The position numbers were made by a program, and so were the translations under genes. A stretch of DNA of 64,000 nt, taken from positions 6,112,001 to 6,176,000 of the forward strand of contig CBDDPY010000002.1 in the NCBI GenBank assembly GCA_965232515.1. The letters are read 5' to 3'. Within the stretch, counting starts at the first letter, position 1, and the number at the start of each line of letters is the position of its first letter. Source of the DNA: Alphaproteobacteria bacterium (GTDB lineage Bacteria > Pseudomonadota > Alphaproteobacteria > GCA-2731375). The notes below the pieces were generated by a model. It did no database searches, was not told the origin of the DNA, and saw only the letters and a program-made list of their open reading frames with translations. This document shows, one piece after another, positions 9,200-19,464 of this stretch.

Positions 9200-10165
9200 A
9201 TGGGCATGCTGATCGACGGCGCGTGGATTGAGGACGACGCCAAGTACCGGCAATCCGGCGGCAAGTTCGTTCGCCGCGACTCGCATTTCCGCAACTGGGT
9301 GACATCGGACGGATCGTCCGGCTATCCCGCCGAGGCCGGGCGGTACCATCTCTATGTGGCCGCGGCCTGTCCCTGGGCGCACCGGACGATCCTGTTCCGC
9401 AAGCTGAAGGGTCTCGAGGACGCGATCTCGCTGTCCTATGTCGATCCGGTCGCGCTGGCCGGCGGCTGGGCCTTCACCAGCGAGCCCGACCCACTGTTCG
9501 ACGCCAATTTCCTGCACGAGATCTATCAGCGCGCCGATAAGAGCTACACCGGCCGGGTGACCGTCCCGGTGTTGTGGGACCAGCAGACCGACGGAATCGT
9601 GAACAACGAGTCGTCCGAAATCATCCGTATGTTCAACAACGCCTTCGACACGATCGGCAATGCGGCGGTGGACTACTATCCGGCGGCGCTGCGGGCTGAT
9701 ATCGACGCGATCAACGCTGTCATCTACGACCGCGTCAACAACGGCGTCTACAAGTGCGGTTTTGCCAGAGCGCAGGAGGCGTACGATGAGGCTTTCGACG
9801 TTCTGTTCGCCACGCTCGACGACCTGGAGCAACGTCTCGACGGGCAGCGCTACCTCGTCGGCGATCGTCTGACCGAGGCCGATTGGCGACTGTTCACCAC
9901 GCTGGTGCGGTTCGACGCCGTCTATTTCGGGCACTTCAAGTGCAACCTGAGGCGCATCGCCGACTACCCGAACCTGTCGAACTATCTGCGCGAGCTCTAC
10001 CAGATGCCGGGCGTTGCCGACACGGTCGATCTGGAAGATTTCAAGACCCATTACTATGCGAGCCAGTTGTCGGTCAATCCGACCGGTATCGTGGCGAGAG
10101 GGCCCGAGCTGGATCTCAGCGCGCCGCATGACCGCGGCCGTTTCGCCGTCGCCGCGGCCGAATAA
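9200..10165 (+). CDS. yqjG: Glutathionyl-hydroquinone reductase (YqjG/Xi-class GST)
   Basis: RYHLYVAAACPWAHR, VTVPVLWD, NNESSEIIR, NNGVYKCGFA. Confidence 0.92.
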   Translation: MGMLIDGAWIEDDAKYRQSGGKFVRRDSHFRNWVTSDGSSGYPAEAGRYHLYVAAACPWAHRTILFRKLKGLEDAISLSYVDPVALAGGWAFTSEPDPLFDANFLHEIYQRADKSYTGRVTVPVLWDQQTDGIVNNESSEIIRMFNNAFDTIGNAAVDYYPAALRADIDAINAVIYDRVNNGVYKCGFARAQEAYDEAFDVLFATLDDLEQRLDGQRYLVGDRLTEADWRLFTTLVRFDAVYFGHFKCNLRRIADYPNLSNYLRELYQMPGVADTVDLEDFKTHYYASQLSVNPTGIVARGPELDLSAPHDRGRFAVAAAE

Positions 10166-17063: not shown

Positions 17064-17756
17064 CTACTCCGCCGCGGCGGAGTCGAACAGGCCGCCGATG
17101 TAGAAGCCGCGCCGTTTCAGGCTGGCGACCCATTCGTCGGCGAAGCTCGGCGCCACCGAGCCGGTGACGATCTCGCTCGCCAGCAGCGCGTCCGACCAGG
17201 CCTTGACCTGCGGGAAGTCGTTCAGCAACCCGCTTTGCAGCCGCTGCTCGGCCATGTCGAAGCGCTGCAGGAACGGCGCATAGGCCGCGTCGACAAGGCA
17301 CAGCTTGTCGCCGTTGAAGTAGGGACCGTCATTGCCGCGCTCCTGCGCGATGGCGTCCTCCAGCTTTTGCAGCACCTTGGGCGCAGCCGCCAGACCCTCG
17401 TCGACGCCCTCGCGAGTTGCCTGGTAGTAGACGCCACTCAGGCCCTTGGAGAAATCCGGCACGAAGTCGGTCCAGGCCCGGTTGCGGGCTCGCTTGATCG
17501 GGTCCTCCGGATGCAGGCGCGGCGGCACCACTTCGTCCAGGAACTCGGCGATGGCGTTCGATTCGAACAGCGGCTCGCCGTCCACGTTCAGCACCGGCAC
17601 CTTGCCGTGCGGCGAGATCTCCAGGAACCAGCCCGGCTTCTCACGAAGATTGATGTAGGTGACCTCGAACTCGACCTGTTTCGCACGCATCACGATCACG
17701 GCGCGCTGAACCCAGGGTCAAGTTACCGAGCTCACCAGATGATATTTGCTGGCCAT
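17064..17756 (-). CDS. Glutathione S-transferase (omega/DHAR-like), predicted selenoprotein, Sec13 encoded by TGA at 17718-17720
   Basis: ATG 17756 reads MASKYHLVSSVT-TGA-PWVQRAVIVMRAK, in frame with the tracked ORF 17064-17699; TGA occupies the catalytic Cys of the C-P-[FYW]-x-Q-R motif; SPHGKVP and FESNAI follow; true stop is TAG. Confidence 0.85.
17673..17720 (-). promoter_or_regulatory. Candidate bacterial SECIS hairpin of the GST gene
   Basis: mRNA after UGA: GCGCGC(+12..+17) pairs with GCGUGC(+30..+35), loop CGUGAUCGUGAU; lower pairing GACC.UG with CAGGUC. Confidence 0.6.
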
Positions 17757-17830: not shown

Positions 17831-18433
17831 CTAGGCGGGCCGGCAGATCATCTCGACCGCATCGTCGGCGAATTTCACCAGGCTGGCCTTGGCCTCGCCC
17901 AAGCGGGAGCGCAGCGCCAGGCTGTGCAGCACCGCCTGCGCCAGCTTCGCCGCCGCCTCCGGCGCGCGCGACGTCGGGAACTGGCCGTCGTCCTGGGCTT
18001 GCCGAAACCGACGCGTCAGCATGTCGTCGATCTGGCTCAGCAGGTGCTTGACGTCACGCCGCACCTCGGCGTGCACGACGGCCTCGACCGGCGCCGTGCA
18101 GAAGGCGAAACAACCGCGCGCCGGCTTGCCGCCGCAATAGACGTCGAGCGCGGCGCGATAGAGCTTGCGCAGCGATTGGGCGAGGTCGGGTTCGTCGGTC
18201 AATCGGTCGCCGACCTCGGTCTCGAGCTGCGCCGCGAACCGTGCCATGGACCGGCGGTAGATCATCTCCTTGTCGCCGAATGCGTTGTAGAGGCTGGGCC
18301 GGTTCATGCCCGTGGCCCGGGCCAGATCGTCCAGCGACGTGGCGGTAAGGCCCTGGGTCCAGAACAACTGCATCGCCGCTTCCAGCGCCTCGTCGGGATC
18401 GTACTGCCGTGGCCGGCCGCGCGGTCTGCTCAT
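17831..18433 (-). CDS. TetR/AcrR (ComR/NemR-like) regulator
   Basis: RGRPRQYD, FWTQG..ATSLDDL...GMNRPSLYNAFGDK. Confidence 0.92.
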   Translation of the reverse strand: MSRPRGRPRQYDPDEALEAAMQLFWTQGLTATSLDDLARATGMNRPSLYNAFGDKEMIYRRSMARFAAQLETEVGDRLTDEPDLAQSLRKLYRAALDVYCGGKPARGCFAFCTAPVEAVVHAEVRRDVKHLLSQIDDMLTRRFRQAQDDGQFPTSRAPEAAAKLAQAVLHSLALRSRLGEAKASLVKFADDAVEMICRPA

Positions 18434-18494
18434 TTTTGTACCTATTCGCATAATTTAATTGACTCCGATAATTTTATGCGGAACGATACAAAAA
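18433..18494. promoter_or_regulatory. Paired inverted TetR operator candidates flanking a TTGACT -35 box
   Basis: tttttgtacctattcgcataa (18433-18453) versus ttatgcggaacgatacaaaaa (18474-18494), 17/21 inverted match. Confidence 0.7.
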
Positions 18495-18516: not shown

Positions 18517-19464
18517 ATGCCCAGAATCGACCATCCCAAGAGCCCCCTCGTGCCCAAGCTCCAGGGCCTGCATCTGTTCCACTTCGAAGGCGCGCCCTGC
18601 GCCCAGCGCGTCCGCTTCGCGCTGGCGGAAAAGGGCCTGGCGCGGGACCGGGACGTCGCCTGGCAGTCGGTCGCGCCCGACACGCTCGTTGCCGAGACCG
18701 GCACCTGGATCAGCCGGCATGTCTCGCTGGTCAAGAAGGACCACCTGACCGACGCCTACGCGGCAATCCACCCGAACCTGGTTGTGCCGGCGCTCGTGCA
18801 TGACGGGCGGCTCTATATCGAATCCATGGACATCGTGGACTACATCGACGCGACCTGGCCGGAGAACCGCCTGGTGCCGGACGACTCCGACCGCGCGGCG
18901 CTGGCCCGGTCACTGGTCGACCAGGCGAAGGCGCTGCATGTTTCAGTGCGTTACGTGTCGTTCCGCTGGGGCCTGGGTCGCCTCGGCAAGCTGAACGCCA
19001 GCGACGAAGAAAACCTGCGACGCCTCGAGACCGACGGTTCGCCCGAACAGCTCGTCAACTTCTATGAAAGATATGACCGCGGCCAGATCGAGGAGGCGAC
19101 CTTCGCCGAGCACCTGGCGGCGCTCGAGGGCGGCTACGGGGCGCTGGAGCGGCTGTTGTCGGGCGACGGCCAGCCGTTTCTGACGGGCGACAGCTTCAGC
19201 ATCGCCGACATTATCTGGTCGCTGAAAGTGCTCAGGATCGAGGAATGCGGCTATCCCTTCGCCGCGAACTTCCCGGCGCTGTTCGCCTGGTATGGCCGGG
19301 TGACAAGCCGGCCCGCGTTCAAGGAGGGCGTCATGTCGCGGCATACGGCGATGAGCCGGACCTTCAAGCTCAAGGCCGCCGCCGCGAACCTGATGGGCCA
19401 TGGTCTGAAGCAGGCGAGCCGGCGCCAGGATAAGACCGGTGGGAGCGCGGCGAGTGCCGCGTGA
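18517..19464 (+). CDS. GST family protein (GDAP1/reductive dehalogenase-like)
   Basis: APCAQRVRFALAEKG, HPNLVVPAL, IESMDI, FSIADI. Confidence 0.85.
   Translation: MPRIDHPKSPLVPKLQGLHLFHFEGAPCAQRVRFALAEKGLARDRDVAWQSVAPDTLVAETGTWISRHVSLVKKDHLTDAYAAIHPNLVVPALVHDGRLYIESMDIVDYIDATWPENRLVPDDSDRAALARSLVDQAKALHVSVRYVSFRWGLGRLGKLNASDEENLRRLETDGSPEQLVNFYERYDRGQIEEATFAEHLAALEGGYGALERLLSGDGQPFLTGDSFSIADIIWSLKVLRIEECGYPFAANFPALFAWYGRVTSRPAFKEGVMSRHTAMSRTFKLKAAAANLMGHGLKQASRRQDKTGGSAASAA

Follow-up and report, generated by a model that had tools for sequence, protein, structure and literature searches.

A predicted selenocysteine-containing glutathione transferase encoded through a conserved in-frame UGA in an alphaproteobacterial genome

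In a 64,000-nucleotide stretch of alphaproteobacterial DNA (the window; positions 6,112,001 to 6,176,000 of contig CBDDPY010000002.1), the minus strand carries a reading frame with homology to glutathione transferases (GSTs) that meets a TGA close to its beginning, which raises the question of whether this triplet ends translation, marks a pseudogene, or specifies an amino acid. Specifically, the frame runs from an ATG through 11 sense codons to the TGA, and then through a further 217 sense codons to a TAG at 17064–17066. Under translation table 11 the open reading frame (ORF) has 211 codons (17064–17699) and starts at the GTG of codon 20, while reading the TGA as selenocysteine (Sec, U) yields a product of 230 residues that begins MASKYHLVSSVT-U-PWVQRAV. 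The codons that a preliminary description of this DNA had placed upstream of the 211-residue call (ATG GCC AGC through TGA CCC TGG) match the sequence exactly, reading the minus strand from position 17756. We consider it very probable that 17064–17756 forms a single intact gene, encoding a 230-residue cytosolic-type GST with Sec at catalytic position 13, here termed Sec-GST. This high confidence applies to the existence of a real Sec-encoding GST gene and not to its substrate, and the presence of selenium in the protein is a prediction.

The case for recoding begins with the conservation of the TGA itself. When 61 related genomes were searched in six frames with the 230-residue protein, an orthologue at 59–83% identity was recovered in 31 of them (the window's own genome included), each match containing exactly one TGA. 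Thirty of these loci were extracted, the 31st (G012), at a contig end, being left out, and in all 30, which show 63–78% identity and come from several genera and four family codes, the TGA lies at the same codon within an invariant T-U-P-W-V-Q-R motif. The preliminary description had allowed that the TGA might be unique to this assembly and accompanied by relaxed selection on the gene; the same-codon TGA of the 30 related orthologues does not fit that possibility. An even sample of the class (401 genomes from 308 genera, orthologues accepted at E ≤ 1e-70) contained the orthologue in 10 genomes, with a TGA in all 10 and one row counting two. One genome per species was also scanned with two patterns that are independent of the codon in question (FESNAIAE and RGNDGPYF), and 479 loci were confirmed; among the best 80 of these, 77 carry TGA and 3 carry a Cys codon (2 TGT, 1 TGC). 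The record titles of the species-genome loci name uncultured Alphaproteobacteria, Rhodospirillaceae and Defluviicoccus, together with a few bins labelled Gammaproteobacteria or Pseudomonadales.

The alternative to TGA at this codon is invariably cysteine. In a scan of metagenomes with the pattern TCPWVQR[AS], which seeds on Cys forms only, and with a neutral pattern, the best 80 of at least 568 confirmed loci comprised 61 with TGA and 19 with a Cys codon (11 TGC, 8 TGT). Across the 190 loci formed by the 30 related, 80 species-genome and 80 metagenome loci, codon 13 is TGA in 168 and TGT or TGC in 22, and no other codon was found there; the proportions of the two forms are biased, as the species-genome set consists of the 80 loci most similar to a Sec query and the metagenome seeding was partly Cys-specific. 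The pairing is equally apparent in protein databases. Among the best 120 matches, 30 cover 95–100% of the query and every one of them has Cys in T-C-P-W-V-Q-R, while the other 90 are truncated calls of 208–217 residues that cover 87–93% of it. Natural Sec and Cys orthologues occur at 65–75% identity. Both the Cys/TGA pairing at codon 13 and the conservation of TGA among relatives, which the preliminary description had put forward for examination, are thus borne out. Because three orthologues (L026, L043 and L045) themselves terminate in TGA, this triplet still functions as a stop in these organisms, with a meaning that depends on context. An unrooted FastTree phylogeny, which assigns no ancestral state, was built from 154 distinct proteins, of which 135 are Sec and 19 Cys forms, after the catalytic column had been masked; on it the Sec/Cys label changes at least four times, and at least two of these changes are forced by well-supported branches. 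Taken together, these comparisons show the UGA to be a conserved and, as judged from sequence, selected feature of the orthologue group that alternates only with Cys codons.

The region upstream of the TGA also behaves as coding sequence. In the related orthologues an ATG stands 11–12 codons before the TGA, most with a GGGGAGA/GGAG-like stretch upstream; at the reference position 21 of 27 rows begin with ATG, and most of the others start one codon later. Among 88 distinct Sec-form coding sequences (CDSs), normalised codon entropy averages 0.70 over the conserved residues of codons 2–12, as compared with 0.74 for conserved columns outside codons 17–25, a set in which the eight upstream ones are included. 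The conserved upstream residues K4, Y5, H6, L7, S9, S10 and T12 vary synonymously, as in K4 (AAA/AAG), L7 (CTG/TTG/CTC/CTA) and S10 (TCG/TCC/TCT). Because their codon entropy resembles that of the rest of the gene, codons 2–12 appear to encode a translated, selected peptide and not a leader region. In terms of domain content, the Pfam profile GST_N (PF02798) matches the 230-residue form from profile position 2 of 76 (protein residue 4) and the 211-residue form only from position 19 of 76, and since the match reaches the start of the profile in the long form alone, the extra 19 residues belong to the GST domain. This agrees, as does the structural model described below, with the earlier suggestion that the extension restores the first beta-strand and the active site. 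Comparison among orthologues shows that the sequence on both sides of the UGA is translated.

Insertion of Sec requires dedicated machinery, and the source genome (7.39 Mb in four contigs, 96% complete) encodes it. Matches to selA (575.7 bits), selB (429.2 bits) and selD (290.4 bits) all exceed curated cut-offs, as does that to tRNA-Sec (71.6 bits), for which ARAGORN gives the anticodon TCA. These genes are clustered at C2:5873594-5884533 of the source genome (G000), about 230 kb from Sec-GST, so that the preliminary description's other route to refutation, a genome devoid of Sec machinery, does not apply. Among related genomes, selB exceeds its cut-off in 29 of the 31 with the TGA form and is present in 6 of the 30 without it, a co-occurrence among kin that serves as a consistency check and not as a statistical test.

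Further features of this machinery were noted in the same genome. The selD match (C2:5873594-5874502, L011) lies in a 778-residue open frame that far exceeds the 311-position model, which suggests a fused SelD. At C2:3662617-3663141 the GTPase portion of the selB model has a weak match (38 bits), with one TGA within a 505-residue open frame. Formate dehydrogenase was considered as the reason for keeping the machinery and was rejected: the genome has three TIGR01553 and eight TIGR01591 matches without an in-frame stop, and the alpha-subunit homologues lie at C2:6664306-6666354, at 7170136-7171776 and at six further places. As all of these homologues are free of in-frame stops, the Sec machinery is not kept here for the sake of the commonest bacterial selenoprotein.

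With respect to the signal that would direct Sec insertion, the message downstream of the UGA can form a short hairpin that invites comparison with bacterial selenocysteine insertion sequence (SECIS) elements. The model set out in a 2026 review specifies a stem of 4–16 bp, a loop of 3–9 nt with G in the first two loop positions, a UGA-to-loop distance of 16–37 nt and a minimum free energy (MFE) of −7.5 kcal/mol or lower (PMC13188914, Fig. 2 legend); the same review states that some SECIS elements do not fit. The hairpin agrees with this model in its 6-bp stem, its 17-nt spacing, a loop that starts C-G-U-G, and an MFE of −7.9 to −9.3 kcal/mol when folded alone. Across 77 distinct sequences, standard pairs are found in 97.4% of 462 stem cells, with 12 cells unpaired. 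Constraint at the nucleotide level is concentrated in the same place. Specifically, when 120 conserved degenerate columns are ranked by codon entropy, codons 18, 19, 20 and 17 are lowest (0.07–0.16) and codon 24 comes fifth; between them these codons span the 5′ arm, the beginning of the loop and the 3′ arm. Sec forms have Q-R-A-V at codons 17–20 in 140 of 141 distinct sequences, 126 of the 140 using the identical 12-mer CAGCGCGCCGTG; Cys forms have Q-R-A-V in 12 of 20 distinct sequences and encode it by ten different 12-mers, with CAGCGCGCCGTG in 0 of the 12. All six stem pairs are likewise present in 126 of 141 Sec forms as compared with 5 of 20 Cys forms. This comparison shows a constraint that sits where a bacterial SECIS would be expected and that is relaxed in the Cys forms.

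Several observations nonetheless weigh against Sec insertion at this UGA, most of them concerning the hairpin. The 77 distinct sequences contain no compensatory double change at any of the six pairs, and every shuffle equals the observed values; the variation that does occur in the stem is one-sided, with G-U becoming G-C at one pair and C-G becoming U-G at another. Covariation was ruled out as support, there being no two-sided pair changes. RNAalifold moreover prefers a register shifted by 2 (82.5% of cells paired as compared with 97.4%), with a consensus energy of −4.86 kcal/mol, and because of this differing register and the lack of compensatory changes the structure rests on conservation and not on covariation. 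Pair 16-37 is broken in 7 of the 77 sequences. In terms of stability, it is the Cys forms that have the more stable folds over the 48 nt after codon 13 (mean −18.0 kcal/mol, as against −14.0 kcal/mol in Sec forms), and the copy in the window reaches a z-score of only −1.22 against shuffles; folding energy was accordingly rejected as a means of telling the two forms apart. The 12-nt loop of most orthologues exceeds the 3–9 nt of the SECIS model, and in the window sequence a C-G/G-C ministem cuts it to a 4-nt UGAU tetraloop. A minority of TGA lineages (L113, L116, L119, L173, L181/L182, L183 and L196) have other loop sequences: CGGUCAU replaces the frozen CCGUGAU in L113, L116 and L119, and further variants occur in L173, L181 and L196. 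As judged by eye, an 8-bp stem would be possible in L113, L181/L182 and L196, where column 31 has C and column 21 has A or G. Such variants may reflect lineage-specific co-evolution of the signal with SelB. Finally, two of the 31 TGA-form genomes, both of them drafts (G013, 96% complete with 6% contamination, and G042, 77% complete), gave no selB match above the cut-off. The features of the locus are collected in Table 1.

Table 1. Features of the Sec-GST locus, in window coordinates
Feature	Position	Strand	Remarks
Full CDS of Sec-GST	17064–17756	minus	230 codons and TAG; TGA at codon 13 read as Sec
ATG start, 12 codons before the TGA	17754–17756	minus	Start conservation among orthologues; codon entropy of codons 2–12
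In-frame TGA (UGA), predicted Sec codon 13	17718–17720	minus	Motif T-U-P-W-V-Q-R just before helix alpha-1; TGA conservation and Cys pairing
SECIS-like hairpin, starting 11 nt after the UGA	17683–17706	minus	Folds; pair conservation
Hairpin 5′ arm, GCGCGC	17701–17706	minus	Can pair with 3′ arm
Hairpin 3′ arm, GCGUGC	17683–17688	minus	Can pair with 5′ arm
Hairpin loop, 12 nt, CGUGAUCGUGAU	17689–17700	minus	Can form a 2-bp ministem with UGAU tetraloop in the window sequence
Frozen 12-mer CAGCGCGCCGTG, codons 17–20 (Q-R-A-V)	17697–17708	minus	Covers 5′ arm and start of loop
GTG codon 20, last three bases of the frozen 12-mer	17697–17699	minus	Start of the 211-residue call (table 11 ORF)

Outside the window, the same genome contains a second candidate selenoprotein gene, with an in-frame TGA at C2:6315336-6315338 (L241 937-939, minus strand). 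It is a 328-residue ORF (L241 571-1557, minus strand) in which Pfam recognises a CMD domain; its motif N-G-C-V-Y-U-T-T-S-H is a classic C-x-x-U arrangement, and 24 nt after its UGA lies a 7-bp hairpin with the loop CGUGC. The C-G-U-G loop start common to this hairpin and that of Sec-GST is suggestive of a shared signal, as seen in two genes only. A paralogous GST is encoded at C2:6643760-6644413, which is 40% identical to Sec-GST over residues 5–227 and has no in-frame stop.

A rival reading is that the TGA is a real stop, that the 12 codons upstream are untranslated or encode a leader peptide, and that the product is the 211-residue protein initiated at the GTG at 17699, so that the gene is a pseudogene or specifies a truncated enzyme. 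Table 11 indeed yields exactly this ORF, and three quarters of the best 120 database matches (the 90 truncated calls above) have a comparable length. The GTG at codon 20 is also nearly invariant in Sec forms (85 of 88), and this frozen codon, a further point against the recoding we propose, could in principle serve as an internal start. However, a nonsense mutation is not expected to persist at one codon in more than 100 orthologues down to 57% identity, and the codons before the TGA show protein-like evolution as well as homology to GST strand 1. In a 211-residue form strand 1 would be missing, along with the catalytic residue and six residues at the start of helix alpha-1; no Shine–Dalgarno-like sequence precedes the GTG, and in the Cys forms, which are continuous through this region, codon 20 is not kept as GTG (GTC, GTA, GTT and GCG occur). 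We regard a genuine stop as scarcely credible. The conserved TGA, its pairing with Cys, the sel genes and the translated upstream codons all agree instead with the proposal in the preliminary description of a Sec enzyme rather than a pseudogene.

A second possibility accepts that the UGA is read through and assigns it another amino acid, whether by near-cognate insertion of Trp, Cys or Arg or by insertion of Cys through the Sec pathway when selenium is scarce, in which case mostly thiol or inactive protein would be made. The departures of the hairpin from the bacterial SECIS consensus in loop size, the lack of covariation in its stem and its undistinctive folding energy would be readily accommodated by this view. 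Against it, the TGA form accompanies selB in nearly all genomes that have it, the codon alternates only with Cys codons, as is expected for a Sec/Cys pair, and nucleotide constraint downstream is found only where the codon is TGA, which points to a dedicated recoding signal. Unassisted read-through is inefficient, and it would be an odd means of supplying a catalytic residue that is kept across the whole clade. Such read-through is in our judgment very unlikely. On the preferred reading, and by the established bacterial mechanism, SelB carrying GTP and Sec-tRNA(Sec) would bind the hairpin and deliver Sec at the UGA in the ribosomal A site, the signal comprising the UGA, 11 nt, a 6-bp G+C stem and a loop beginning C-G-U-G; where SelB delivery failed, translation would stop after 12 residues.

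The predicted protein belongs, by domain content and model, to the GST superfamily. Pfam profiles GST_N_2 (1.4e-17) and GST_C_2 (2.4e-10) match over their cut-offs, GST_N, GST_N_3 and GST_C also match, and the best family is PF13409; NCBIfam returned nine matches, all far below cut-off, with no specific or selenoprotein model fitting. An AlphaFold2 model built from a 20-sequence alignment (mean predicted local distance difference test score, pLDDT, 87.8; predicted template modelling score, pTM, 0.87) has the canonical GST fold, in which an N-terminal thioredoxin-like domain of beta-alpha-beta-alpha-beta-beta-alpha topology is followed by an all-helical C-terminal domain. Strand 1 of the model comprises residues 5–10 and helix 1 residues 14–25, placing residue 13 at the helix N-terminus, which is the catalytic position of thioredoxin-fold enzymes. 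The V-P cis-Pro loop before strand 3 and the E-S pair at the start of helix 3 hold glutathione in GSTs, and K52, V53, P54, E65 and S66 are invariant in all 20 aligned sequences. We infer from this homology that the glutathione site is intact and that glutathione is bound.

Among the 60 matches listed by phmmer against the PDB, the closest are Leishmania TDR1 (4e-26) and rat and human GSTO1 (1e-22 to 6e-20), with pyrimidodiazepine synthase, dehydroascorbate reductases (DHARs) and Lambda GSTs as further relatives, and Sec13 aligns on the catalytic Cys of the C-P-F motif in TDR1 and GSTO1. The comparison with Omega/DHAR-type Cys-GSTs drawn in the preliminary description is accordingly upheld. By structure, Foldseek ranks Tau-class GSTs first, followed by Omega and DHAR, at template modelling (TM) scores of 0.7–0.8 and 24–29% identity. 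Omega-class and related Cys-GSTs (GSTO1, 1eem and 8qll; TDR1, 4ags; Drosophila pyrimidodiazepine synthase; plant DHAR and Lambda) share the two-domain fold, and in these enzymes the catalytic residue stands at the N-terminus of helix 1 in C-P-[FYW]-x-x-R, matching the position of Sec13. A mixed disulfide or selenodisulfide with glutathione would be the expected intermediate common to both. Sec-GST differs in having Sec for Cys and Trp for Phe, in its bacterial origin, and in overall sequence (about 25–29% identity). Omega-class enzymes have Cys in C-P-F-x-x-R, and their N-terminus is extended by about 20 residues, which pack against an extension at the C-terminus. In Sec-GST only 12 residues precede the catalytic residue, as compared with about 31 in GSTO1, and strand 1 starts at residue 5, which leaves no Omega-type N-terminal extension. 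We therefore do not file Sec-GST as an Omega-class enzyme and propose, from homology, that it may work like one. Xi-class glutathionyl-hydroquinone reductases of the YqjG type (C-P-W-A-H-R) are also Cys-type GSTs and, like Sec-GST, have Trp after the Pro. Assignment to this class was rejected, since no such entry appears among the 60 PDB matches listed, the protein has 230 residues, and its motif continues V-Q-R and not A-H-R. The window itself contains a YqjG-like GST with the motif C-P-W-A-H-R at 9368-9385 on the plus strand (context HLYVAAACPWAHRTILFRK), as the preliminary description had remarked.

In the chemistry that we propose by homology, the selenolate would act like the Cys of Omega-, Lambda- and DHAR-type GSTs and attack a disulfide, a glutathionylated substrate or one otherwise oxidised; an enzyme-Se-S-glutathione intermediate would form, and a second glutathione would regenerate the selenolate. 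The substrate in this scheme is wholly inferred, which is a limit on the reading as a whole. A thiol-transferase or reductase of the Omega/DHAR kind is our leading candidate, at somewhat under an even chance. The principal rival holds that the GST scaffold supports a natural glutathione peroxidase, in which a hydroperoxide would oxidise the selenol to a selenenic acid and two glutathiones would recycle it. The best structural matches found by Foldseek are the soybean Tau-class GSTs 4chs, 4top and 2vo4 (TM 0.73–0.78), residue 13 of Sec-GST falls on residue 13 of 2vo4 in the phmmer alignment, and in a variant of a soybean Tau GST the chemical replacement of Ser13 by Sec is reported to raise kcat for cumene hydroperoxide 177-fold and to confer H2O2 reduction (PMC10812501). 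The best sequence relatives, on the other hand, are Cys-GSTs of the Omega/TDR1/DHAR kind, to which the C-P-[FW]-x-x-R motif belongs, and natural Cys forms exist in the same orthologue group. A Cys at this GST site makes a poor peroxidase and a competent thiol-transferase. No peroxide-stress genes are conserved beside the orthologues. Glutathione-dependent hydroperoxide reduction is thus a serious alternative that we hold to be possible but rather unlikely, and the remaining probability falls on some other substrate for the selenolate scheme.

The genes around Sec-GST were considered as a clue to function and rejected, as no neighbour is conserved, a result that also withholds support from the substrate assignment. 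In the window, the neighbours are a convergent family III CoA-transferase gene, a TetR-family regulator immediately upstream on the same strand (17831-18451, minus; 74-nt gap), and a 315-residue GST-like gene (18517-19464, plus) divergent from the TetR gene, so that two GST genes flank one regulator. Of 109 loci, none has the TetR or the 315-residue GST-like gene next to the orthologue and two have the CoA-transferase there; the most widespread neighbour family occurs in only 11 of 80 loci, with no operon partner.

Selenium-containing GSTs have been predicted before, and the novelty attributed to this gene in the preliminary description was overstated. In the Sargasso Sea selenoproteome (Zhang, Fomenko and Gladyshev 2005, Genome Biol 6:R37, PMC1088965), GST (COG0625) is one of 15 new selenoprotein families and is represented by four sequences. 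Two entries of the supplement, AACY01041448 and AACY01726075, have TGA at nucleotides 37–39, as in Sec-GST, and read ...H-L-I-S-x-V-T-u-P-W-V-Q-R-A-V-I-V-L-R..., with the same motif; the bases downstream of the TGA agree with those of the present gene in both. By eye, AACY01726075 has long runs identical to the protein described here (for example PIKRARNRAWTDFVPDFSKGLS), and the bases CAGCGCGCCGTGAT that follow its TGA are those of the present gene. The other two GST entries (R-R-u-P-Y/W-A-I-R) belong to a different subfamily. Sec-GST and the two Sargasso Sea sequences are, by these sequence criteria, members of the same orthologue group, and the predicted family is already known rather than new in kind. 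A Global Ocean Sampling (GOS) analysis gives 12 Sec GST sequences (PMC2398784), and the 2026 review lists a 'GST-like protein, PF13409', the Pfam family that Sec-GST also matches best, among known prokaryotic selenoproteins, describing nearly all their functions as uncharacterised (PMC13188914). The 2005 entries are short shotgun fragments, whereas the copy here is full length in an assembled genome with sel genes; all are known from sequence analysis only. The 2005 paper describes Sec forms as rare beside widespread Cys homologues (PMC1088965), in contrast to which the TGA form is the commoner one in this orthologue group in the samples taken here. The literature searched, with subscription journals mostly outside it, yielded catalogues, reviews and engineered enzymes but no laboratory study of a naturally occurring Sec-GST. 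The engineered seleno-GSTs (Tau, Theta and Zeta enzymes with Ser replaced by Sec, studied as glutathione peroxidase mimics) likewise have Sec at the catalytic Ser/Cys position, and residue 13 corresponds in the soybean Tau seleno-GST and Sec-GST. Those proteins were made by chemical modification or auxotrophic expression, whereas Sec is here predicted to be encoded by a UGA and hairpin and naturally selected.

With the family itself already catalogued, the interest that remains lies in the predominance of Sec in this clade, the poor fit of the hairpin to the SECIS model, the truncation of database entries and the lack of biochemistry. Gene callers cut Sec-GST short, so that strand 1 and the active site are lost in those 90 of the best 120 database homologues, and because no NCBIfam model reaches its cut-off on the protein, this error will keep propagating. 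The matched natural Sec and Cys orthologues, close as they are in sequence, would allow a clean comparison of the two residues. More speculatively, and with little confidence, we suggest that Sec may be the standard, strongly preferred state in this alphaproteobacterial GST clade and not an uncommon version of a Cys enzyme, and that the hairpin, with its 12-nt loop and frozen CCGUGAU, may represent a distinct class of bacterial SECIS whose CGUG is shared with another candidate selenoprotein gene of the genome. If this is true, Sec-GST would be one of the proteins that maintain the Sec machinery, and its chemistry would be that of a natural seleno-GST, such as the reduction of hydroperoxides or unusual electrophiles, beyond what Cys can achieve.

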